Below are positions 2,468 through 63,477 of a stretch of 64,000 bases of DNA, piece by piece (positions within the stretch are counted from its first letter, which is position 1; each line of letters opens with the position of its first letter). The DNA lies in assembly GCA_021786315.1 (NCBI GenBank), contig JAJYNN010000003.1, positions 67,360-131,359 of the forward strand, in the 5' to 3' direction. The notes beneath the pieces are model-generated. The model did no database searches, was not told where the DNA came from, and saw only the letters and a program-made list of their open reading frames with translations. Made by a program: the position numbers and the translations under genes. Source of the DNA: a bacterium. GTDB taxonomy: Bacteria; Patescibacteriota; Microgenomatia; Daviesbacterales; UBA10151.

Positions 2468-3868
2468 ATGCCAACTCTTAAAAAAACCATGTTCCGTGAA
2501 TACGACCTCCGGGGACGGGAAGCGGATGATGAGCTAAACGAAGAATCCATGTACCATATCGGACGCGGATTCGGAACTCATCTTAAGAGGAAGGGCATTA
2601 AGGAAGCAACAATTGGACATGATGTCCGGGCCACCTCTGAATCGTTCCATAAAAATTTTATCAAAGGCGTTACAGAATCCGGAGTAGACGTTATCAATAT
2701 CGGCAACGTTACTACCCCTATGGGCTACTGGTCGCAGCACTATTTAAATACCAAGGGCGGGGCAGTAATCACCGCCAGCCATAATCCAGTGGGTTGGAAC
2801 GGAGCGAAAATTAGCGATGATTTTTCTAAAACCATGTTTGGCGAAGAGATCCAACAGATCCACAAGATAATTGCAGATGAAGATTTTGAAAATGGCCAAG
2901 GGTCTATAATTTCCAAAGATATCAAGGAGGCCTATATTCAAGACCTGCTTTCCAAATCCAAGGTCACTAATAAATTTAAAATTTTAGTCAACACCGGAAA
3001 CGGCACTGCGGCAATTGTTGCCCCGGAGCTCTTAAGAAGAGTCGGTTGTGAAGTTATTGAGCATAATACCAATATTGACCCCACATACCCCAACTACACT
3101 CCCAATCCGGAAAATGTGGCCATGATGGAGGACACCATTGCCCAGACAATCAAACATGGATGCGACCTGGGTTTTGCTTTTGACGGGGATGGGGACAGAT
3201 TAGGTTTAGTGGATAACCAGGGACATGTTTTTGCAGCTGATATGATTTTGATTCTCCTGTCCCGGCTTTATCTAAGCCGCCATCCCGGCAACAAAGTCAT
3301 GTTCGATGTTAAAGTTTCCGAAGCCTTACCGGAAGATATTAAAGACCACGGCGGGGAGCCGATCATGTTCCGGACAGGGCATTCTTACATTAAGGCAGAG
3401 ATGAACCGTCAAAATATTTCCCTAACCGGAGAGATGAGCGGCCATATATTTTTCGGCAAGGACTTTGACTATTACGGATTTGATGATTCAATGGTTTCTG
3501 CTTTGAAGGTTTTAGAGTTTTTATCTGAACAAAACGAGCCCCTGGCGGAAATTTTTGCCAGCATCCCCCACTATATTGCTACCCCGATTATCAATGTCGA
3601 AACAGCTGATGAAGTCAAACACGATATCATTAAGCAAATCACTGCCCAATTCAAAAAGGAGGGGTATAAAGTTGTTGATGTCGACGGGGCCAGGGTTTAT
3701 GCCCATGAAGGGTGGGGGTTGGCCCGCGCCTCCAATACTACCCCCAATATTGTCTTGAGATTCGAAGCAAAATCAGAAGAACAAATAGAAAAAATTAAAG
3801 AAATTTTTCGGGAGAAACTCCAAAAATTTAAAGAGGTCAGTACTGACTGGAATTATACCGGCGGTTAA
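2468..3868 (+). CDS. Phosphomannomutase/phosphoglucomutase (alpha-D-phosphohexomutase)
   Basis: Active-site TASHNP(V)GWNG, metal-binding loop FDGDGDRLGLVD, sugar-binding GEMSGHIFF. 466 aa. Confidence 0.9.
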   Translation: MPTLKKTMFREYDLRGREADDELNEESMYHIGRGFGTHLKRKGIKEATIGHDVRATSESFHKNFIKGVTESGVDVINIGNVTTPMGYWSQHYLNTKGGAVITASHNPVGWNGAKISDDFSKTMFGEEIQQIHKIIADEDFENGQGSIISKDIKEAYIQDLLSKSKVTNKFKILVNTGNGTAAIVAPELLRRVGCEVIEHNTNIDPTYPNYTPNPENVAMMEDTIAQTIKHGCDLGFAFDGDGDRLGLVDNQGHVFAADMILILLSRLYLSRHPGNKVMFDVKVSEALPEDIKDHGGEPIMFRTGHSYIKAEMNRQNISLTGEMSGHIFFGKDFDYYGFDDSMVSALKVLEFLSEQNEPLAEIFASIPHYIATPIINVETADEVKHDIIKQITAQFKKEGYKVVDVDGARVYAHEGWGLARASNTTPNIVLRFEAKSEEQIEKIKEIFREKLQKFKEVSTDWNYTGG

Positions 3869-5965: not shown

Positions 5966-6863
5966 TTAGACTCAAACCCCTTTCCTGAAGTTTTTGGGAG
6001 ATCAAAGTCAAAGACTGTACTCCCAAATTTTTAGTTTTCAAAAGCTGGGCACGGGGTGCAGTGATCAATTTTTCCACAGTCTCGATATCCACAGCTTTTA
6101 AGGCATTGGTAATTCTGACAGGAAGATCTAACTCTTCGACACTAAGCTTTAAGACATCATCCGGGACTTTGGTTTCCTCAACCTCTTCGCCTTCAAATAC
6201 CGGCTCAAAGAGCTGCTTGAAGTAATCGCTTAAAACCTTGGCTGATTGGTTTAAAGCCTCTTCCGGTTTGACACTGCCGTCAGTGGTAATGTTCATCACC
6301 AGCTTGTCGAAGTTAGTGCTGCGGCCAACACGGGTTGGCTCAACTTTGTAATCAACTGAAATTACCGGGGTAAAGATGGAATCAATTGGCAGGACTCCGA
6401 TTTCGGAAGTTTTCTTTTCATCAGCGCCGACATACCCCACACCCTTTTCCGCAGTCATCTCAATATTTAATTTGGCGGAAGGAGTGTTCAAAGATGCAAT
6501 GTGCTGATCAGGGTTAACGATCTCTCCGCCACCCATGGCATTAATATCCCGGGCTTTGACTTCACCTTTTCCGGAAGCCTTAACAACCAATCTGATGGGC
6601 TTATCAGAAAAGATTCTCAGTTTAACCTTCTTAAGGTTCAGGATTATTTGGATAACGTCTTCCGAGATTCCCGGAATGGTGGAGAATTGATGGGAAACTC
6701 CATCGATCTTAATAGTGGAAATAGCAGCTCCTTCTAAACCGGAAAGTAACACCCGGCGCAAAACGCTGCCTAAAGTGTGGCCGAAACCTCTCTCTAAGGG
6801 TTCGATGGCAAAAGAGCCAGAATTATCAGTTTGTTCAATTGTGTTTATTTTAAAATTAATCAT
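5955..6863 (-). CDS. rpoA: DNA-directed RNA polymerase subunit alpha
   Basis: AIEPLERGFGHTLGSVLRRVLLS N-terminal domain signature. 302 aa. Confidence 0.95.
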   Translation of the reverse strand: MINFKINTIEQTDNSGSFAIEPLERGFGHTLGSVLRRVLLSGLEGAAISTIKIDGVSHQFSTIPGISEDVIQIILNLKKVKLRIFSDKPIRLVVKASGKGEVKARDINAMGGGEIVNPDQHIASLNTPSAKLNIEMTAEKGVGYVGADEKKTSEIGVLPIDSIFTPVISVDYKVEPTRVGRSTNFDKLVMNITTDGSVKPEEALNQSAKVLSDYFKQLFEPVFEGEEVEETKVPDDVLKLSVEELDLPVRITNALKAVDIETVEKLITAPRAQLLKTKNLGVQSLTLISQKLQERGLSLSEA

Positions 6864-6865
6864 GG

Positions 6866-7468
6866 TTATCTACTATAATATTCAACAATCAGATGTTCGT
6901 CTATCCCCGACTCGGCCTCATCCCTATTTGGAACCCGTAAAACCTTGCCTACGGTAGCCTTTCTTTCCAGCCACTCCGGCAAGGTAGTTTGAGCATCCAA
7001 ACTTTTTCTAACCTGTGTATTATCTAACATCTTCTTCAAAATAGCAACAGTTGATCCAGGTTTGACTTGAAAGGATGGAATTGTCACTTTTTGGCCGTCA
7101 ACACTGATATGTCCGTGGGAAACCATCTGCCTGGCGCCGGCCCGGGAAGGAGAAAAACCTAAACGGTAAACAACATTATCCAGTCTGGTTTCCAAAAGCT
7201 GCATCAAAACATTCCCGGTATTACCCCTCACCTTGCTGGCAGTTTGATAATATTTGGCAAACTGTTTTTCCAAAAGGCCATAAGTCCTTTTGGCCTTTTG
7301 TTTTTCCCGGAGTTGGATACCGTATTCAGAAACTTTCCGGCGGGCACGGGGATGGACCGGTCCGGGAGGAACAGCTCCTTTTCTTTCAATGAAGGCAGCA
7401 TCTTTAGCAAATAGTGCTACACCTTCACGACGGGATAATTTTCTTTTTGGTCCGGTATAACGCGCCAT
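6866..7468 (-). CDS. rpsD: 30S ribosomal protein S4
   Basis: MARYTGPKRKLSRREGV... is typical uS4. 200 aa. Confidence 0.95.
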   Translation of the reverse strand: MARYTGPKRKLSRREGVALFAKDAAFIERKGAVPPGPVHPRARRKVSEYGIQLREKQKAKRTYGLLEKQFAKYYQTASKVRGNTGNVLMQLLETRLDNVVYRLGFSPSRAGARQMVSHGHISVDGQKVTIPSFQVKPGSTVAILKKMLDNTQVRKSLDAQTTLPEWLERKATVGKVLRVPNRDEAESGIDEHLIVEYYSR

Positions 7469-22587: not shown

Positions 22588-24009
22588 ATGAGCGAACGAC
22601 TCACTTCCATCTCAATCTCAACTGCCAGCGCACCTACAATAAGGTTAAGTGCACCCAGCACAATGCCAAGCGTAGGAGGCAGAGCATTCTCCCCTAACTT
22701 TCTTTCCCATACCCAAGTATTAGCTCGACCTGCACCCAAACCCGATTTCCTGAAGATGCCTAAGGTAGAAGTAGTCAAAGCTCCTTCTTCAGACCAAAGA
22801 ATATCTCAAGCAGAAGCGTTTAACCCGAACAATAAGATTCTCTGGCAAGCTCCAAAACCGGAAATCGGAGGCCAGAAACCAGAGAGCAAACCAAGCGTCT
22901 CTACATTTAAAGCTGAAAAAACTCCTGCCGCTCAACCTTCGAAGGAACAGCCCAAGGCAGTTGAAGCTAAACCAAAGCCCCCAGTTCAACCAGAAAAACC
23001 CAAAGCCGAGGCTCCCAAAATTGAGACCAAAGATATCACTAAACCAAAAGTTGTTACCCGAAGGGAAGAAGCTAAAACCCAACCCTTAGCCCAAACTTTA
23101 GCCCAGGAGTTAGCGCCGGGGGTACAAAAACCGGACTTTAAACGGCTGGAAAGGGCCGTAAAAGCCACGGAAAAGCCGGTTTCGGTCCTCAAACAAGAGG
23201 TTGAAGAAGTGGCCAAAGCAATCAATGTACCAAAGCCAAAGGAACAACCGGAGGCTAAACCACTGCAGCTTCCAATCTCTCCGGCACTCAAACCGGAAAC
23301 CCAAAGAGCAACCCAAACCCAACCGGAATTAAGTCCGGATCTAAAACAAGCCTTAAAAACCTACGAGTTACTTGCAGCAGCCTTAATTAAGACACAAGTT
23401 GCGCCGGAAGCAGCCCAAAAACAAGCCGCAATTATAGTCTCCCAGGCAATCAGGCCGGAACTCAAAGAACAGTTTTTAACCTCTCTTCAACAAAAACCTG
23501 AGGCCAAGGAAAGGCAACAAGAGGCAAAAGAGAGAGATGAAATTATCAGATTCTATATCGAAAGGGATCCGGAAACAGACAACAGGCGGGTGAAAGCCGC
23601 AATCCAGGCTCTGATAGAGAACTTCCAACCGGGTGAAATACTATCCGGAACAAAGGTCGCCGATAGGATCACATCTAATCTTTTATCAAAAGAACAGCTC
23701 AGCCCAATAATCAGGCCTATCCATCCCTTTGACGGCTTACTGGAAGATTTCCAGACATTTATCCGAAGGTCGGAATTTAGAACTTTGGAGGAAGGATACC
23801 AAAGAATAGATCTGGCCAGCAAACTTTTCCCTGCGGCCCGATTTAATACCCAAGTCACGACCGAGGGGCTCCATCGGGAAAAGGCGTACCGGATTTACTA
23901 CGGAAACATTGATTATGTCTGGGTGGACGGCTGGGGAGTTTGCAGATTTGAACCTGCTGCCGAATCAAGGGAAAAACCCAACCTGTTTGGAACTCTCCAC
24001 AAAGACTAA
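22588..24009 (+). CDS. Hypothetical protein: ~300-aa Pro/Lys/Glu/Ala/Gln-rich low-complexity N-terminal region plus a ~170-aa C-terminal globular domain
   Basis: It is the only long ORF in this interval. Strong SD GAGGAGAAGGGAGAG before the ATG, and a putative promoter TTGAAA-17-TATCCT upstream. It is convergent with fusA, with a 4-nt gap. I recognise no domain. Confidence 0.6.
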   Translation: MSERLTSISISTASAPTIRLSAPSTMPSVGGRAFSPNFLSHTQVLARPAPKPDFLKMPKVEVVKAPSSDQRISQAEAFNPNNKILWQAPKPEIGGQKPESKPSVSTFKAEKTPAAQPSKEQPKAVEAKPKPPVQPEKPKAEAPKIETKDITKPKVVTRREEAKTQPLAQTLAQELAPGVQKPDFKRLERAVKATEKPVSVLKQEVEEVAKAINVPKPKEQPEAKPLQLPISPALKPETQRATQTQPELSPDLKQALKTYELLAAALIKTQVAPEAAQKQAAIIVSQAIRPELKEQFLTSLQQKPEAKERQQEAKERDEIIRFYIERDPETDNRRVKAAIQALIENFQPGEILSGTKVADRITSNLLSKEQLSPIIRPIHPFDGLLEDFQTFIRRSEFRTLEEGYQRIDLASKLFPAARFNTQVTTEGLHREKAYRIYYGNIDYVWVDGWGVCRFEPAAESREKPNLFGTLHKD

Positions 24010-26153: not shown

Positions 26154-26372
26154 TTATTTATCTTTCTCTAATTTTTCGATGACTTCTTTAACCTCATCAA
26201 TTCTTACCTGATAGGTCTCAGCATCCTCTTCTAAAGATTGTAGGGCTGAGTCATCACCTAAGTTGGTTCTGGCTTCTTCATCTCTTTGCTGCAAGATAGA
26301 CTTATGCTCACTAATGAGTTTTTTGAGTTTTTCTTGCCACATTTTCAGTTTTTCTTGATTTATTTTGTTCAT
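26154..26372 (-). CDS. Small (72 aa) Lys/Glu-rich coiled-coil protein, translationally coupled to fusA
   Basis: Its stop codon lies 1 nt before the fusA ATG (TAAtATG). A terminator sits upstream, so it heads the fusA transcript. No recognisable family. Confidence 0.5.
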
Positions 26373-26410
26373 TGTTTAAATATCCTCTTTCGGTTTCCAT
26401 AGCTAGCACT

Positions 26411-26433
26411 TAAAAAGCCTCCTTCGGGAGGCC
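26411..26433 (-). terminator. Rho-independent terminator after the 236-aa hypothetical gene
   Basis: On the minus strand, a GCCTCC-CGAA-GGAGGC hairpin is followed by TTTTTAAG. Confidence 0.55.
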
Positions 26434-26509
26434 GTCAACATGTCAATATTACCCAAGATCACGCTTAAAGTCAACACAAACTTCTGATCTGTGACATTGA
26501 AATTTATGC

Positions 26510-27220
26510 TTACCCCTCGGGAGAATTTCGATCCAGGCAAATTTTCATAACTTTGGTGGGCACTTGAGGCAGGTAATTATATGCTCCACCGCTCTTTAGG
26601 CGATAGCCGTTAATAATCCCCTTAGCCTTTTTCTCAACTTTTTCCGGAGAAAATCCCGCAGCTTCGATCTTTGTCCGGAAAACAGATTCCCCCCGGACTA
26701 AGGCCATCACAAACCCCCAATAGATTTTATGCTGCTCCTCCGTCATATAGGAATCAATCCTCTGGACACTCTCACACGTTTCCATAGCATACCTTATTAA
26801 GCCGTTATGGTTGATCTGTTTTCTGGAGATACTTAGTCTTTCCGGCTGTTCCTCCGGCTTTTTCTCTTTTTGAGCCTCTTTTAAGCCTTTGGTTTCCGGC
26901 ACCGCCGCCTCCGGGTCAAAATAATCCCGGAGCATCCAACAACCAATTACTTTTGCTTCATCCAGCTCAGCCTCCGAGAGCCCTGCTTTTTTCACTTCCT
27001 TCATCGCCAAATTAAGTTGGGATTCCTTGGATTCCGGATCACGCAACGTAAAATAGTAGGCAAAAGTAAATTCCCGGGAGACCGCTTTAACAGGATCGGG
27101 AACATCTAAAATAGATAGTTTTGCCCGGGTATAATTTTTTAACTTCCCAAACGGCTCCTCCAACTTGTGGTTAGCATAAACAGAGGCATCAACAGGTAAT
27201 TTGGGCAGTTGTTCCGTCAT
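26510..27220 (-). CDS. Hypothetical protein (236 aa) sitting between rpsG and fusA
   Basis: Intact ORF immediately downstream of rpsG (30-nt gap). Mixed alpha-helical sequence. No recognisable domain. Confidence 0.6.
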   Translation of the reverse strand: MTEQLPKLPVDASVYANHKLEEPFGKLKNYTRAKLSILDVPDPVKAVSREFTFAYYFTLRDPESKESQLNLAMKEVKKAGLSEAELDEAKVIGCWMLRDYFDPEAAVPETKGLKEAQKEKKPEEQPERLSISRKQINHNGLIRYAMETCESVQRIDSYMTEEQHKIYWGFVMALVRGESVFRTKIEAAGFSPEKVEKKAKGIINGYRLKSGGAYNYLPQVPTKVMKICLDRNSPEG

Positions 27221-35874: not shown

Positions 35875-36492
35875 TTAATAGTTATTAGAAGGTCTAACCA
35901 ATAAGACTTTTGCTTTTTGGTAAAGATCTTCCACTGATCCCTCTTCCCACCAGCCGGTAATATCATTATCAGGGATTAACTCAGGACGATTTGTGGGAAT
36001 TCTGCCCGGACTCCATCGCCATCCTCTCGGCCAAAGACCCGGATCAGTCTTAGGCTTTCCTTCCCTCACTTGAATAGGTTCTTCACCCCGAAAAGGAAAG
36101 CCGATGTGGTATTCCAGCGCAATGTTAAACGATACATGATGGAACTGGTTCACAAAACCACGCTTATTGTATAAGGCCAGGGGGTCGAAAGCTTCCTCTC
36201 TGGAAATTAAATCTTTATCGTAACCGTAGGCAAAATTCTCAGTAACATACTGTGCCTCAACTATATGATGCTCAAAATATCTGGCATACCCGGGGACATA
36301 AATTTTATAGAAAACATCCAAATAATCCCAAACATCACCAGCCGCTGAAACCCAAGCCAGTCTCCAATTAGCCTTTCCATAAATTTCATTCCAACATAAA
36401 GCTTGAGTATCCTTGTTTTTACCCTGGTATCCAGGAGTGTCGGCAATCTTCCAAAGATCCCCATCTATCTGTACTTCCTGTATACCAGCCAT
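35875..36492 (-). CDS. Hypothetical protein (205 aa), Trp/His-rich, probably soluble
   Basis: Intact ORF. No recognisable domain. Confidence 0.55.
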   Translation of the reverse strand: MAGIQEVQIDGDLWKIADTPGYQGKNKDTQALCWNEIYGKANWRLAWVSAAGDVWDYLDVFYKIYVPGYARYFEHHIVEAQYVTENFAYGYDKDLISREEAFDPLALYNKRGFVNQFHHVSFNIALEYHIGFPFRGEEPIQVREGKPKTDPGLWPRGWRWSPGRIPTNRPELIPDNDITGWWEEGSVEDLYQKAKVLLVRPSNNY

Positions 36493-42366: not shown

Positions 42367-42442
42367 TGGAAACAGCTGCCTGAATTAGGCAGCAGAATTA
42401 TTATATACAGTGTATCACAAATGGGGAAGTTCTGTAGAGAAC

Positions 42443-42479
42443 AAAAGGGGCCGAAAACCTCGGTCCCCCTTTTGTTTTT
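42443..42479 (+). terminator. Strong bidirectional terminator-like hairpin in a divergent intergenic region
   Basis: ACAAAA, GGGGCCGA, AAACC, TCGG-T-CCCC, then CTTTTGTTTTT. There is an A-run before and a T-run after. No annotated gene ends here on either strand. Confidence 0.5.
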
Positions 42480-42653
42480 ACTAACAACACCTAGAAGGAA
42501 TCTCTTCAACTCCTTTCAGGTGACAAGGTCCCACAAAGGTAGCAGATCTAGAATACCCCTTTGGGCAAGCCCACGCATGCTTGTGGACATTTTCAGCATA
42601 TGACTATCAATATATCTTTGTCAACTACGTTCAGTTTACAGGAACGTAGCCAA

Positions 42654-42962
42654 ATGGTTGTTTTAATGTCTTCGAATTTGTTATACATAACTAAGATGGC
42701 TAAAACGTTCTTTACTGCAGATGAGGCAAAACAAATTGGAGAGTCACTGGGAATAGACTGGAGCCGCTTTGATGTGGAACAATTCCGGATGGGTTTGGAT
42801 GTGGAACTTGAGCACGGCACCGTCTCCCCTTCCACTAATGTCACCAACGATGACCCAATTCTAACCGGCAAGATTGCCTTGGCTCACCTTAACGAGTACG
42901 CCGACTATTACACCCGTTTGGCCAAACTGGAGAAAGAGGCTGAAGAATTTTGGGGGAAATAA
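42654..42962 (+). CDS. Small conserved-domain protein (possibly DUF5661-like; ELEHG ... TNDDP motif)
   Basis: GLDVELEHGTVSPSTNVTNDDPILTGKIALAHLNEYADYY. The start is uncertain (ATG 42654 or 42696). The ORF-track start at 42561 adds implausible N-terminal sequence. Confidence 0.5.
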   Translation: MVVLMSSNLLYITKMAKTFFTADEAKQIGESLGIDWSRFDVEQFRMGLDVELEHGTVSPSTNVTNDDPILTGKIALAHLNEYADYYTRLAKLEKEAEEFWGK

Positions 42963-43735: not shown

Positions 43736-45514
43736 ATGACATCAAATGAGTTAAGGCAAAAATATTTGGATTTTTTTAAAAGCAAAGGACACAAAGAAAT
43801 TCCTTCTGCTTCCCTAGTTCCGGAAAATGATCCCACAACTTTATTTACCAGCTCCGGTATGCAACAACTTATTCCTTATCTTAAAGGACAAGCCCATCCT
43901 GAAGGAAAAAGATTAACTGATTCCCAGCCCTGTTTTCGGTCCCAGGACATTGAAGAGGTGGGTGACAACCGTCATACAACCTTTTTTGAGATGTTGGGCA
44001 ATTGGTCTTTGGGTGATTACTTCAAAAAAGACCAGCTAACATGGTTTTGGGAATTTTTGACCCAGGAATTAAAGCTTGACCCAGACAAACTTTATGTTTC
44101 TTATTTTGAGGGCGATGATCAGATTCCTGAAGATACGGAAACCAAGAATATTTGGCAGGAGTTGGGAATTCCCGAAAACCATATCTATGCTTACGGAACC
44201 AAGAAGAACTGGTGGTCGCGCTCCGGAACTCCGGAAGAAATGCCGGCAGGGGAAATTGGCGGCCCTGATTCCGAAGTTTTTTATGAATTTACTCAGATAG
44301 AACATGATCCAAAATACGGCGAAAAGTGTCACCCTAATTGTGAATGCGGAAGGTTTTTAGAGATTGGCAACTCTGTTTTTATCCAATACGAAAAACAGGA
44401 AAACGGAACATTTAAGGAACTTCCTCAAAAAAATGTTGATTTTGGTGGAGGGCTGGAAAGAATTACAGCAGTATCAGTTAATGAACCTGACATCTTTAAA
44501 ATAGACCTCTTCTGGCCAATTATTGGAAAAATTGAGGAACTTTCCAAGAAAAACTATTCTGACCCAAATGAGCAAAATCCAATGCGAATTATTGCCGACC
44601 ATATCAAAGCTGCTTTCTTTTTAATTGAGTCAGGAGTCCAACCAAGTAATAAATTACAGGGATATATTCTTAGAAGATTATTACGAAGGGTAATGGTAAA
44701 ACTCAACCTTTATACTAAGGACCAAAGACCATTTTTAGGAGAATTGATTGATGCTGTAGCTGAGATATATCGAGCAACCAGCTATTTTCCAGAACAGGGC
44801 GAGGAGCTGGTTAAACAAGTGGTATGGGAAGAATTAGCAAAATTTGAACGAGCACTCGCTCAAGGTTTAAAAGAAATCGAGAAAATTGAAAACATAACTG
44901 GAAAGCTTGCCTTTGATTTATTCCAAACCTATGGTTTTCCCTTGGAACTTACAGAAGAGTTGGCAAAAGAAAAGGGGCTGGAGATTGACCGGGAAGAGTT
45001 TCGGCAAGAGTTTGAAAAACATAAAGAATTATCCCGCACCGCTTCGGCCGGGATGTTTAAGGGAGGGTTGGGAGAGCAATCGGAAGTTACAACTAAATAT
45101 CACACTGCCACACATTTACTCCATGCTGCACTCAGAAAAGTTTTAGGGGAGCACGTCCAACAAAAAGGCAGCAATATTACCGCCGAAAGGTTGCGTTTTG
45201 ATTTTTCCCAGCCGGAAAAAGTTTCCGAAGAACAGCTGAAAGAAGTTGAAAACTTAGTTAATGAACAAATCCAAAAAGATTTACCGGTCACCTCTGAAGT
45301 GATGGACAAAGAAGATGCTTTAAAGTCCGGGGCTTTGGGATTCTTTACTGAAAAGTATGGGGACAAAGTGACTGTTTATACCATCGGAGACTTCTCCAAA
45401 GAAATCTGTGGCGGACCGCACGTTAATAACACCAAAGAGTTGGGAAACTTTAAAATTATCAAGGAAGAATCAGCCGGCGCCGGTGTCAGGCGTATTTACG
45501 CTGCTTTGTCTTAA
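43736..45514 (+). CDS. alaS: Alanine--tRNA ligase, short form (catalytic + tRNA-binding + editing domains; no C-Ala domain)
   Basis: N-terminal class II motifs (FTSSGMQQLIPY, FEMLGNWSLGDYFK). Editing-domain HTATHLLHAAL...CGGPHV. It ends at 592 aa. TGaTATAAT at 43721-43729 lies 6 nt before the ATG, suggesting a leaderless mRNA. Confidence 0.9.
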   Translation: MTSNELRQKYLDFFKSKGHKEIPSASLVPENDPTTLFTSSGMQQLIPYLKGQAHPEGKRLTDSQPCFRSQDIEEVGDNRHTTFFEMLGNWSLGDYFKKDQLTWFWEFLTQELKLDPDKLYVSYFEGDDQIPEDTETKNIWQELGIPENHIYAYGTKKNWWSRSGTPEEMPAGEIGGPDSEVFYEFTQIEHDPKYGEKCHPNCECGRFLEIGNSVFIQYEKQENGTFKELPQKNVDFGGGLERITAVSVNEPDIFKIDLFWPIIGKIEELSKKNYSDPNEQNPMRIIADHIKAAFFLIESGVQPSNKLQGYILRRLLRRVMVKLNLYTKDQRPFLGELIDAVAEIYRATSYFPEQGEELVKQVVWEELAKFERALAQGLKEIEKIENITGKLAFDLFQTYGFPLELTEELAKEKGLEIDREEFRQEFEKHKELSRTASAGMFKGGLGEQSEVTTKYHTATHLLHAALRKVLGEHVQQKGSNITAERLRFDFSQPEKVSEEQLKEVENLVNEQIQKDLPVTSEVMDKEDALKSGALGFFTEKYGDKVTVYTIGDFSKEICGGPHVNNTKELGNFKIIKEESAGAGVRRIYAALS

Positions 45515-45816: not shown

Positions 45817-46455
45817 CTATCTTTTCAAGTACACCGTCCTCTCAACTTGAGATTTTTGGCCGAATTTAGAGACAGCGGAAATCTCGATTTTATTGACCGG
45901 AGAAGAAAGAGTAATCTCTTCCTTAAATTGTCCGTCAACATTTACAGGAATCTCCTGCCCGTTGACGGTCACTTTTGCTTCCTGTTCAGTCTCTCCGGCA
46001 ATTTGTAAAGTCGGATTATCAATCGTGAGCTGGTCAGCGGGAGAAGAGATCTTAAGCTCCGGAGCGGAGGCAAAACCGCGGTATTGGATCCAAAGATAGG
46101 CAAAAAAAGCAAGAATCACCAAAGCCACTACCCCGCCTAAAAGCCTTCCTGGAGTAAGCTTTAATCTTGAGACAGAGGGCGGCTTAGAAAAAGCATTCAT
46201 CACATAAGGCTGATGCCTTCTCTCGGAAAACTCCCTTCTATAGATTGCTAAAAGCTTTTGGGAATCTAGTCCTAAAAACCGGGAATAGTTTTTAATAAAT
46301 CCTTGGACAAATGTTGTGGGAGGTAATTTTGAGTAATCGTCAGCCTCCAACGCTGCCAATAACTCTTTTCTGATTTTGGTAGCTTTTTCAATTTCGTCGA
46401 GGGTATAAAACTTTGCTTCCCGGGTTTCCCTTAAAATTGATCCTACCGTACGCAT
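45817..46455 (-). CDS. rodZ: RodZ-like cytoskeleton protein (HTH + TM + DUF4115)
   Basis: YTLDEIEKATKIRKELLAALEADDYSKLPPTTFVQGFIKNYSRFLGLD is the RodZ-type HTH. TM LLGGVVALVILAFFAYLW. C-terminal beta domain. Confidence 0.7.
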   Translation of the reverse strand: MRTVGSILRETREAKFYTLDEIEKATKIRKELLAALEADDYSKLPPTTFVQGFIKNYSRFLGLDSQKLLAIYRREFSERRHQPYVMNAFSKPPSVSRLKLTPGRLLGGVVALVILAFFAYLWIQYRGFASAPELKISSPADQLTIDNPTLQIAGETEQEAKVTVNGQEIPVNVDGQFKEEITLSSPVNKIEISAVSKFGQKSQVERTVYLKR

Positions 46456-46564: not shown

Positions 46565-47113
46565 ATGCCAGATACTGCCGATCAAAAACCCAATCTTCCG
46601 CCTCCCCAAGGGGAAAAAGACCAGGCCGAGAAATATCTCGACAAGCTTGCTAATTTAATTATCCATAACAAAATCCAGGTTTCCCATACTGATTTAAAGA
46701 AATTCGACCTTACGTCTTTGCAGGATCACTACACTATCCCTTTAGATGGCTACGAGGTGGAAGTCAGCCATACCAAACAACCGGACACCGGCAAAGATTT
46801 CTTCGTCATGCTGTTTAATAACATCCGCATGGTCCAGGCCGACGGGGCTAGCTGCATCGATAAATTGATTCTGGCCTATATCCATCTAACGGAAGAGCAA
46901 TTCAGAAAGTTTAAAAGGGTTGCTGATGATCAGCTGGAAAGAAAAAGGCGGGAGGAAGAAGCTCAAAGGTTTGAGGAAGCAATGACCCCGGTGGACAGCC
47001 TATTATCCAGATTTGCGGAAAATTCAGCTAAACCTTCATTCCAGACAAACAATCAGGAACAAAGGCCCCAAGCAACCCCGGCCCCCGTTAATAATTTCTC
47101 TGATAATTTTTAG
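46565..47113 (+). CDS. Hypothetical protein (182 aa)
   Basis: Intact ORF with a 4-nt convergent overlap with ftsK. No recognisable domain. Confidence 0.5.
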   Translation: MPDTADQKPNLPPPQGEKDQAEKYLDKLANLIIHNKIQVSHTDLKKFDLTSLQDHYTIPLDGYEVEVSHTKQPDTGKDFFVMLFNNIRMVQADGASCIDKLILAYIHLTEEQFRKFKRVADDQLERKRREEEAQRFEEAMTPVDSLLSRFAENSAKPSFQTNNQEQRPQATPAPVNNFSDNF

Positions 47114-60523: not shown

Positions 60524-61135
60524 ATGTCGGTATCTTTCGAAATGTTTATCGCCGCGGTAACCTGCTTTTTTAGCTTCGGTATCCAGTCTCTTTTCTATCT
60601 CGTCTATAGACTTAAACGATCCGCATTGATTAAGAAAGAAAAAACGGTATTTGATTATCTTTCAGGTGTTATAGGGGATGGAGTTTTAGTACCCTCAACC
60701 AACATTTTTGCAGTCCAAACCCTTCAATACACCGGAGCAGACCTGTTAAATATGCAAGCTTGGCTTTTGGCTTTACCAATTGGTTTTGCCATCACTTTCT
60801 CCTCACACTATTATCAACAAAAATCTCAGCTTACTAACTGGACAATGCCAAAGATAGGCAGGTGGAATACATTAGGGTTCTACCATGCGTTCTTTATGTT
60901 TTGGGAAACCACATTTTTAGGATACTCCTTAATCAGCCAAATTGAGTTTTCCCTCCATCATGGCCTTAGATCTTTTATCTATTCACCAATTAAATTTGGC
61001 CTTCTAGCGCTGACTTTATTTCTTCTTACTTTCTTTATTGACTACTGGAAGAGTGTCTTTAAGGAATTTGCTGCAGATGTTTTTCGCTCCATTCTTGGCT
61101 TTGAGGTTGATGAGGCCAAAATCCAAGACAATTAG
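60524..61135 (+). CDS. Hypothetical integral membrane protein (203 aa, 5-6 TM)
   Basis: Hydrophobic. TGaTATAAT (60502-60510) lies 13 nt before the ATG. Confidence 0.55.
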   Translation: MSVSFEMFIAAVTCFFSFGIQSLFYLVYRLKRSALIKKEKTVFDYLSGVIGDGVLVPSTNIFAVQTLQYTGADLLNMQAWLLALPIGFAITFSSHYYQQKSQLTNWTMPKIGRWNTLGFYHAFFMFWETTFLGYSLISQIEFSLHHGLRSFIYSPIKFGLLALTLFLLTFFIDYWKSVFKEFAADVFRSILGFEVDEAKIQDN

Positions 61136-62415: not shown

Positions 62416-63477
62416 ATGGAAGAATCTAGTGAAGTTGATTTTGGGACTGTTTCTCAGAGTGCTCAGGAATGGGAAAACGGGATTAAAAAAACCATTGAGG
62501 CCAATGGCCATACCTGGCACTATATTGAATACGGCAACCCCCAAGGCACTCCTCTAATTAATATCCATGGCTGGTTAGGCTCCTCTGCAGACGGTAATGA
62601 TCTTTTATCTCGTACCTTCGCTGGCGAAGCTGTTAGCTCCCCTGGACTTTCAGCACTTAACCAAACCTCTCCGGAAAGTGCCCAAGGACTTACAGAAAGA
62701 GTGCAAAATTTAAAGGGTAAGTACCATGTAATAACTCCTGAACTTCCTGGTTTTGGAGTTACTGAAGCATTAGAAGGCAAAGTTTCACTTGATCAAATAG
62801 CTGAAAACTTAGTAGGATTTCAAAAAGCACTTTCTGCAAATCAAGCTATTCTTTTTGGCTCTTCCATGGGAGGAATTTTAGCCATTAAAATGGCTGCGGC
62901 CCATCCAGAAAGCGCCAAAGCCTTAGTTGTCCAGGGGACAATGACCCAACCAAAAGATATGGATAAAGTAACTTACGCCCTAGCCCAAGTTATGACCTGG
63001 GGACCAATTCCCAAAGTCATGGCAAAATTAAATCTTACCGGGAAGCTTTTCACTGCAACTGTTAAGGGCAGTAAGGATTTTCAGATAGCCGATAAACCAA
63101 CTCAAGATAGAATTATTGAAGCCACATTAAAGTCAGATCCTATGACAGCCGCTACAACACTAAAGGAAATTGGTAAGGACATAGGTGACGACATTAATAA
63201 AGTGACTTGCCCGGTTATTGTTGTTGACGGGGCCAATGGAACCCTGGTGCCAATTTTAAAAAGCCAGGAAGCAGCAAAACGTTTTTACCCCGATTCGCCA
63301 TTACCCGAAAAGATTCCCCAAAAGGTCGTTTTTCTTCCCCTAGGTGGAGATGCAGGAGAGCAGGGGCATAATATTGTTAATACGCTACCAGAAGGAGTCG
63401 TCTCTTGGGTTGATTATACCCTCAATAAAATGGCGGAAGACCCTCAAAATCAATCGCCTGCTCAAAGCGCTGCTTAA
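62416..63477 (+). CDS. Alpha/beta-hydrolase fold protein
   Basis: HGWLGS, nucleophile-elbow GSSMGG, and a C-terminal Asp/His region. It has a long insertion after beta3. Confidence 0.7.
   Translation: MEESSEVDFGTVSQSAQEWENGIKKTIEANGHTWHYIEYGNPQGTPLINIHGWLGSSADGNDLLSRTFAGEAVSSPGLSALNQTSPESAQGLTERVQNLKGKYHVITPELPGFGVTEALEGKVSLDQIAENLVGFQKALSANQAILFGSSMGGILAIKMAAAHPESAKALVVQGTMTQPKDMDKVTYALAQVMTWGPIPKVMAKLNLTGKLFTATVKGSKDFQIADKPTQDRIIEATLKSDPMTAATTLKEIGKDIGDDINKVTCPVIVVDGANGTLVPILKSQEAAKRFYPDSPLPEKIPQKVVFLPLGGDAGEQGHNIVNTLPEGVVSWVDYTLNKMAEDPQNQSPAQSAA

Follow-up and report, generated by a model that had tools for sequence, protein, structure and literature searches.

The window analysed here is a 64,000-nt stretch of contig JAJYNN010000003.1 from a bacterium of the Patescibacteriota. 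In it, rpoB, rpoC, rpsL, rpsG, fusA and tuf are encoded on the minus strand (Table 1). Two additional open reading frames (ORFs) lie between rpsG and fusA, the gene of elongation factor G (EF-G), as a preliminary description of this DNA had reported. The first, ORF236, encodes 236 amino acids (aa) and starts 30 nt after the rpsG stop codon (27250-27221), which agrees with that description. The second, ORF72, encodes 72 aa directly in front of fusA and is assigned here to a family of Gre-derived proteins that we call miniGre. Neither ORF is a chance frame: both had positive codon-usage scores in frame 0 only, and the GC content of ORF236 was native. Moreover, both were called in two independent other samples (L001 and L002), with products 100% identical to those of the window. 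Since every protein of L001 and L002 is identical to the window's, these two samples give no population-level substitution data. Their rpsG is likewise identical, carries PF00177 and shares 63-75% identity with the S7 proteins of relatives. In 69 of 78 fusA loci of other species, rpsG lies within about 210 nt of fusA, so that an interruption of this pair is unusual, not unique.

Gre factors are two-domain proteins, in which the C-terminal domain docks on RNA polymerase (RNAP) and the coiled coil reaches the active site. In a search of 5.8 billion proteins, ORF72 had three relatives of 76-79 aa, which share 52-60% of their residues with it at E-values between 5e-15 and 7e-9. PF03449, the GreA/GreB N-terminal domain, is carried by two of them. 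One of the carriers, P0003, was matched with 60% identity and an E-value of 5e-15. When five family members were compared with PF03449 directly, four of them matched (best E 2.9e-10). A family profile was then built from nine members and matched 946 proteins, of which the best 120 could be inspected. All of the best 120 were 72-89 aa long and nearly all carried PF03449; those with a source name were all from Candidatus Daviesbacteria and labelled ‘hypothetical protein’. Judged from these sequences, miniGre is a large family, with at least 120 clusters, of stand-alone GreA/GreB N-terminal coiled coils of about 74 aa. Between members with unsaturated synonymous sites, the ratio of nonsynonymous to synonymous substitution rates (dN/dS) was 0.04-0.11, indicating that the miniGre protein is under purifying selection and is not merely an upstream ORF.

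The profile of 121 sequences aligned in register with GreA chains, its positions 15-68 corresponding to residues 17-70 of 4wqt_X (E 0.0032; for 1grj, E 0.02), so that miniGre position n is approximately GreA residue n+2. This in-register alignment indicated that miniGre spans the whole Gre coiled coil and ends where the linker to the C-terminal domain would start. In addition, an E. coli GreA query, whose sequence agreed with 1grj over the residues aligned, matched two miniGre ORFs among all ORFs of the compared loci. With the family alignment as input, AlphaFold2 modelled ORF72 as a two-helix hairpin (predicted local distance difference test, pLDDT, 92.4) with helices 3-36 and 42-70 and a loop N37-D41, which bears out the coiled coil first read from the sequence. 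A Foldseek search of the PDB with this model returned generic coiled coils only, and Gfh1 (3aoi_X) ranked 33rd. The earlier statement that neither protein has a recognisable domain does not hold for ORF72, whose relatives match PF03449 and whose family aligns in the GreA register.

ORF72 possesses an N-terminal coiled-coil domain homologous to PF03449, and it has the features of miniGre, namely a length near 74 aa, helices of the types EKLKMW... and ED...RVRIxEVKxII, and a gene directly 5' of fusA. The globular C-terminal RNAP-binding domain is absent, as ORF72 ends at residue 72 and its model consists of two helices only. Because the whole family lacks this domain, and ORF72 in addition departs from the Gre pattern at the tip, it was not classed as GreA. 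On sequence grounds, ORF72 is a diverged stand-alone GreA/GreB N-terminal domain, predicted to form the coiled-coil finger only. Full-length GreA was not found in the window or in any compared locus, the rest of the genome of about 0.94 Mb lying outside that search. A literature search for GreA together with Daviesbacteria, Microgenomates or Patescibacteria found no paper.

The tip of the hairpin is where the window's copy departs from its family. The motif G-x-A-A-x-E-G-D-L-S-E-N-A-A-Y was essentially invariant in 120 of 121 sequences, as was its core G-D-L-x-E-N-A-A (120 of 121), and the exception was ORF72. The family tip has two acidic residues, which correspond to D41 and E44 in E. coli GreA. 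In ORF72 it carries the changes G31D, A33E, D38N, S40G, E41D, N42D, A43S and Y45L, and G37 is deleted. Among 31 columns conserved in at least 95% of the sequences, ORF72 differed at 10. Eight of the 10 conserved tip columns (columns 31-47) were changed and two kept, compared with two changed and 19 kept among the 21 outside the tip (Fisher p 2e-4). The other sequences differed at 0-5 of the 31 columns, and 81 of them at none. The two acidic residues that Gre factors have within G-D-L-x-E-N are missing from ORF72, where the aligned residues are T/-, N, L, G, D and D; in the AlphaFold2 model its loop N37-D41 still has two Asp, differently arranged. With the helices and the two loop Asp kept, ORF72 looks altered rather than dead.

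The position of miniGre was conserved as well. For 12 lineages the sequence downstream of miniGre was available, and in each of them fusA is the very next gene (the window, L003, L083, L084, L089, L090, L091, L092, L095, L097, L099 and L100), and in L093, where the contig ends at the junction, the miniGre stop codon overlaps an ATG. The gaps between miniGre and fusA were -1, -1, -1, -1, 1, 1, 1, 2, 2 and 4 nt in ten lineages, 15 nt in L084 and 65 nt in L089. The junction reads TAATG or TAGTG in L083, L093, L097, L099 and L100. Upstream of miniGre, the relatives have rpoB-rpoC-rpsL-rpsG in the same orientation, and rpsG ends 23-95 nt before the miniGre ATG where nothing is inserted (L093, L089 and L097). 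This conserved neighbourhood, together with the insert-free loci, indicates that rpoB-rpoC-rpsL-rpsG-miniGre-fusA is the ancestral order in the window's lineage. No miniGre was found near fusA in 79 other species.

Table 1. Coordinates of genes and sites around ORF72 and ORF236 in the window.
Feature	Position	Strand	Remark
rpoB	35429-31935	(-)	ORF list and family libraries
rpoC	31927-28232	(-)	ORF list and family libraries
rpsL	28223-27798	(-)	ORF list and family libraries
rpsG (ribosomal protein S7)	27730-27251	(-)	Last conserved gene ahead of the variable slot
ORF236 (236 aa)	27220-26510	(-)	Slot between rpsG and the miniGre promoter
Promoter-like site, sigma-70 type	26474-26446	(-)	TTGACT 26474-26469, 17-nt spacer, TAATAT 26451-26446; consensus scan
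Leader hairpin GGCCUCC-CGAA-GGAGGCU (26433-26416) and UUUUU (26416-26412)	26433-26412	(-)	Terminator-like
Shine-Dalgarno-like GAGGA	26387-26383	(-)	10 nt 5' of the ORF72 ATG; anti-Shine-Dalgarno duplex -5.8 kcal/mol
ORF72 (72 aa)	26372-26154	(-)	Divergent miniGre member
ORF72 hairpin-tip codons N37-L-G-D-D41, in place of G-D-L-S-E-N	26264-26250	(-)	
Stop-start junction GAT AAA TAA t ATG	26156-26150	(-)	TAA 26156-26154, t 26153, fusA ATG 26152-26150
fusA (EF-G, 712 aa)	26152-24014	(-)	Complete EF-G Pfam domain set
473-aa ORF between fusA and tuf	22588-24009	(+)	
tuf	22353-21172	(-)	

The leader of miniGre was compared among the same lineages. A promoter-like TTGACT(TTT)-17-TAATAT/TAAGAT was present at the same position in 12 of 13 miniGre lineages. 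In 11 of the 13, it is followed 8-15 nt downstream by a hairpin and a U-tract; the CCUCC...GGAGG stem is conserved, the loop varies, and the ATG is 15-40 nt further on. The stem of L083 is a variant one, and both promoter and hairpin are missing from L093. In the window, this leader (26474-26412) has its hairpin about 12 nt downstream of the -10 box. With 7 pairs (5 of them G-C), a 4-nt loop and an immediate UUUUU, the hairpin has the G+C-rich stem and U-tract of an intrinsic terminator. No other strong terminator-like site was found between 23.8 and 28.4 kb. The composite promoter-hairpin pattern occurred 19 times in 1.15 Mb scanned, in 11 lineages and always just 5' of miniGre; as it was derived from the same sequences, only its specificity is informative. 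No Rfam family reached the gathering threshold in the window, and the leader gave chance-level matches only.

In the preliminary description, the hairpin had been taken as the terminator of ORF236, with a new transcript starting behind it. The promoter, however, precedes the hairpin, which is therefore predicted at about +6 to +25 of the miniGre-fusA transcript, and the same module is present in L089 and L097, where rpsG adjoins directly and there is no insert, so that it is not a terminator of ORF236. The proposal that this hairpin is the usual terminator of the genome was also rejected: the 64-kb window has a single CCTCC..GGAGG, and its other terminator-like stems are different.

Hairpins were also observed in front of tuf and rpoB. 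The tuf leader consists of TTGCAT-17-TATATT followed by a CCAGCU...AGCUGG hairpin and AUUUUUAGG, a layout like that of the miniGre leader. It is conserved, and was located at 22500-22354 (-) in the window (hairpin 22453-22437), at 13855-13915 in L095 and at 12435-12500 in L097. For rpoB, a hairpin GAGGCAUAC...GUAUGCUUC with a U-tract stands directly before the start codon at 35463-35432 (-) in the window and is conserved at 1806-1845 in L097. A hairpin in this place suggests that the listed GTG start of rpoB may not be the true one.

At the junction itself, the TAA-t-ATG sequence and the missing Shine-Dalgarno (SD) sequence of fusA, both already read in the preliminary description, were confirmed: the anti-SD duplex calculated for the 25 nt preceding the fusA ATG is only -2.9 kcal/mol. 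Among the 58 genes of the window, 24 have a duplex of -5 kcal/mol or lower and 34 are without an SD, many of which look leaderless. Across lineages, the fusA SD strength ranged from -10 to +1.9 kcal/mol, and in L003, L093 and L097 a good fusA SD (-8 to -10 kcal/mol) lies within the 3' end of miniGre. The stop codon of ORF72 stands next to the fusA start as in translationally coupled pairs, and in 10 of the 12 lineages the two are -1 to +4 nt apart. This conserved stop-start geometry favours termination-reinitiation, and it is plausible that EF-G synthesis depends on translation of miniGre. A fusA AUG sequestered in a structure that is opened by ORF72 translation was rejected, as the region is predicted to be unstructured.

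With respect to the remaining genes of the window, most of the 24 with an SD-like duplex are internal genes of ribosomal-protein operons. Genes 35875-36492, 43736-45514, 45817-46455, 46565-47113, 60524-61135 and 62416-63477 have no SD and carry a TATAAT-like box 6-10 nt before the ATG, which suggests leaderless mRNAs.

Taking both ORFs together, we consider it rather probable that ORF72 is a Gre-derived miniGre tied to fusA and that ORF236 is unrelated, lineage-specific cargo. In such a scheme, transcription would start at the leader promoter, and the hairpin could attenuate it close to the promoter, stabilise the 5' end of the transcript or terminate read-through from rpsG. Ribosomes that finish miniGre would probably reinitiate on fusA, and both proteins would be made together. 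The miniGre proteins of the family most likely put their acidic tip into the secondary channel of RNAP and would thereby represent a minimal Gre-like factor. In ORF72, with its rewritten tip, cleavage stimulation has probably been lost or altered, and the protein may be retained for binding and/or for the coupling to fusA.

Several observations speak against such a scheme. The C-terminal domain is held responsible for the binding of Gre factors to RNAP (PMC4598747), and miniGre is without it. ORF72 itself gives no match to PF03449, and its membership therefore rests on similarity to family members. The fold search did not discriminate, since any antiparallel coiled coil matches the ORF72 model, and the status of ORF72 as the only tip outlier is biased, being seen among the best 120 of 946 matches only, so that copies scoring lower may be degenerate at the tip as well. 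As for the coupling, fusA has no SD in L084 and L089 either, where it is separated from miniGre by 15 and 65 nt, so that coupling is not required in principle; furthermore, the fusA start of the window lies in an A-rich stretch predicted to be unstructured. Finally, a hairpin with a U-tract also stands ahead of the start codon in the leaders of tuf and rpoB in these genomes, and the leader architecture may thus be general and not specific to Gre.

The junction could also be explained if ORF72 were an upstream ORF only, which delivers ribosomes to the SD-less fusA start and whose peptide has no function. Such a role would suit the TAA-t-ATG sequence, the short distance (-1 to +4 nt) seen in ten of the 12 lineages and the loss of the signature tip from an ORF that is still intact. 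It would not account for the dN/dS of 0.04-0.11 and the invariant Gre motif of the family, nor for the 19 of 21 conserved non-tip positions that ORF72 retains. In addition, L003, L093 and L097 have a good fusA SD within miniGre, and in two relatives miniGre and fusA are 15 and 65 nt apart. We therefore regard this explanation as unlikely.

The rewritten tip may be taken as a sign of decay, ORF72 being a remnant that has lost its Gre function and is becoming a pseudogene. It is true that eight of 10 conserved tip positions are changed (including the deletion of G37, D38N and E41D), that PF03449 is no longer detected, and that the three-taxon dN branch of ORF72 is about 1.7 times that of its nearest relative L083, but the reading frame is uninterrupted, with 100% identity in two independent samples, codon usage is good, 19 of 21 conserved non-tip positions and two loop Asp remain, and the hairpin is modelled with confidence (pLDDT 92.4). 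Decay is thus quite unlikely.

It is improbable, furthermore, that miniGre acts on EF-G or the ribosome and not on RNAP, with its position reflecting co-translational assembly with EF-G. Conservation in the family is highest at the Gre catalytic-tip motif GDLSENAAY, whose only known role is in the RNAP active site (PMC4598747). Moreover, rpoB and rpoC are just upstream in the same orientation, and no homology to a ribosome or EF-G partner was obtained in the family and profile searches. The invariant adjacency to fusA in all sampled lineages and the missing C-terminal RNAP-binding domain are the two features that an action on the translation apparatus would explain.

If miniGre is a Gre-derived factor, it can be compared with several known systems. 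The antiparallel coiled coils of GreA and GreB match that of miniGre in length and register, and the family shares the tip G-D-L-x-E-N-A-x-Y with these factors; unlike GreA and GreB, miniGre has no C-terminal domain and its gene is locked 5' of fusA, and the tip of ORF72 reads N-L-G-D-D. The isolated N-terminal domain of GreA reportedly keeps a weak cleavage-inducing activity, which would make a stand-alone coiled coil mechanistically possible. Gfh1 of Thermus/Deinococcus and Rv3788 of M. tuberculosis are RNAP-inhibiting Gre paralogues that enter the secondary channel and do not stimulate cleavage (PMC4598747). They may serve as a model for a tip-altered copy such as ORF72, but they retain the C-terminal domain and the acidic tip residues. 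Between Gfh1 and ORF72 there is only general Gre N-terminal similarity, which includes the Gfh1 chimera 4wqt_X in the profile alignment and 3aoi_X at rank 33. TraR, a 73-aa truncated DksA homologue, is a minimal secondary-channel factor (PMC4598747) and a precedent, at about 70 aa, for the loss of part of a two-domain architecture. The globular part and half of the coiled coil are retained in TraR, but miniGre consists of the coiled coil alone, and the family-library and profile searches gave no DksA or TraR match for miniGre.

In the leader, there is a resemblance to the greA gene of E. coli. According to two papers, two-thirds of the greA transcripts end at the leader terminator GraL, and autoregulation depends on GraL (PMC2836576, PMC6829880). 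In both cases a Gre gene has a leader in which an intrinsic terminator, here a predicted one, comes after the promoter; the likeness is one of layout, with no sequence relationship. Translationally coupled pairs with TAATG or ATGA junctions have the same geometry as the TAA-t-ATG of the window, and the fusA SD varies from strong to none among the miniGre lineages.

A family of Gre proteins that consist of the coiled coil only is unexpected, all the more as it is widespread in the lineage, under strong purifying selection and has its catalytic motif intact in the family. If miniGre works on RNAP, it would challenge the need for the C-terminal domain in function and would provide a minimal natural secondary-channel ligand to study. 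The fixed position at fusA and the stop-start overlap, downstream of rpoBC-rpsLG, suggest that transcription rescue is co-regulated with translation elongation in these very small genomes. In its widest form, the proposal is that the Daviesbacteria lineage has a Gre factor without the RNAP-anchoring domain, tied to EF-G by a shared leader and a stop-start overlap, which would link RNAP proofreading and anti-backtracking to translocation capacity and might replace canonical GreA. The window's copy would then be a non-cleaving Gfh1-like plug, or would be kept mainly to launch EF-G translation. We consider this wider proposal conceivable and, at present, doubtful. For annotation, the miniGre genes are mostly labelled ‘hypothetical protein’.

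ORF236 had no match in Pfam, NCBIfam, PHROG or PADLOC, and a word-indexed search of the 5.8 billion proteins returned only ORF236 itself. An exhaustive HMMER search of 1.8 billion representatives gave two distant relatives, P0006 and P0007 (E 1.5e-4 and 5e-4), which are clearly related to each other. P0007 is flanked by a ribulose-phosphate-epimerase-like gene and a penicillin-binding protein, which is an unrelated context. The AlphaFold2 model (pLDDT 64.5) has helical domains at about 24-101 and 138-209 with a disordered Lys/Glu/Pro linker between them, and a Foldseek search of the PDB with this model found no match. No homologue of ORF236 was present at the sister loci of the 12 other lineages. 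The two genes, which had been described as a pair, are thus not conserved together: of the proposed rpsG-X-Y-fusA arrangement, miniGre at 5' of fusA recurs in 12 of 12 lineages, and ORF236 at no sister locus.

ORF236 lies on the strand of rpsG, 30 nt behind it, and lacks a separate promoter; co-transcription with rpsL-rpsG is therefore probable. A recent horizontal transfer of ORF236 was rejected, as its composition and codon usage are native. In the relatives, the slot between rpsG and miniGre is occupied by other genes. It holds a HigB-like (Gp49) and helix-turn-helix toxin-antitoxin pair (6313-6905) and an HD hydrolase in L100, two proteins of 360 and 210 aa in L099, an IS200-like Y1 transposase fragment (3550-3807) in L090, a histidine phosphatase in L091 and L092 with a further GNAT acetyltransferase in L092, a Wzy_C ligase and secreted proteins in L003, and a PsbP-like protein in L083. 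The toxin-antitoxin pair and the transposase fragment mark this slot as an insertion hot spot, and ORF236 is best read as lineage-specific cargo. That ORF236 is instead a new translation-related or housekeeping factor of the str operon is very improbable: its probable co-transcription with rpsG and its native codon usage and GC would fit, but it is absent from the locus in all 12 other lineages, its one distant relative with known context (P0007) lies elsewhere, the slot holds unrelated cargo in other lineages, and no family or fold match was found. With the rpsG-fusA junction being a hot spot for lineage-specific cargo, extra genes there are not to be read as translation factors.

Among the 78 fusA loci scored, the distance between rpsG and fusA was 436-3079 nt in L004, L021, L037, L042, L056, L063, L065 and L081, besides L003. 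Several of those eight loci are from Patescibacteria, and L003 is a Daviesbacteria locus with miniGre. In L042, fusA is immediately preceded by a 138-aa Lys/Glu-rich ORF, which is no miniGre.

The slot between fusA and tuf was variable too: L097 has no gene there, L099 has three, and L095 has a 96-aa ORF and GpsA. In the window, it contains the 473-aa ORF of Table 1, which is convergent with fusA; 4 nt separate the two stop codons. Pro, Lys and Glu are frequent in the N-terminal half of its product, and the codon usage of this ORF is native. No family was found for it, and its sole match was a weak one to a CtxA-like PHROG (E 0.12). Elsewhere in the window, a 133-aa ORF at 42561-42962 (+) carries DUF5661 (E 4.7e-22), and a strong bidirectional terminator-like hairpin is located just upstream of it at 42442-42474.

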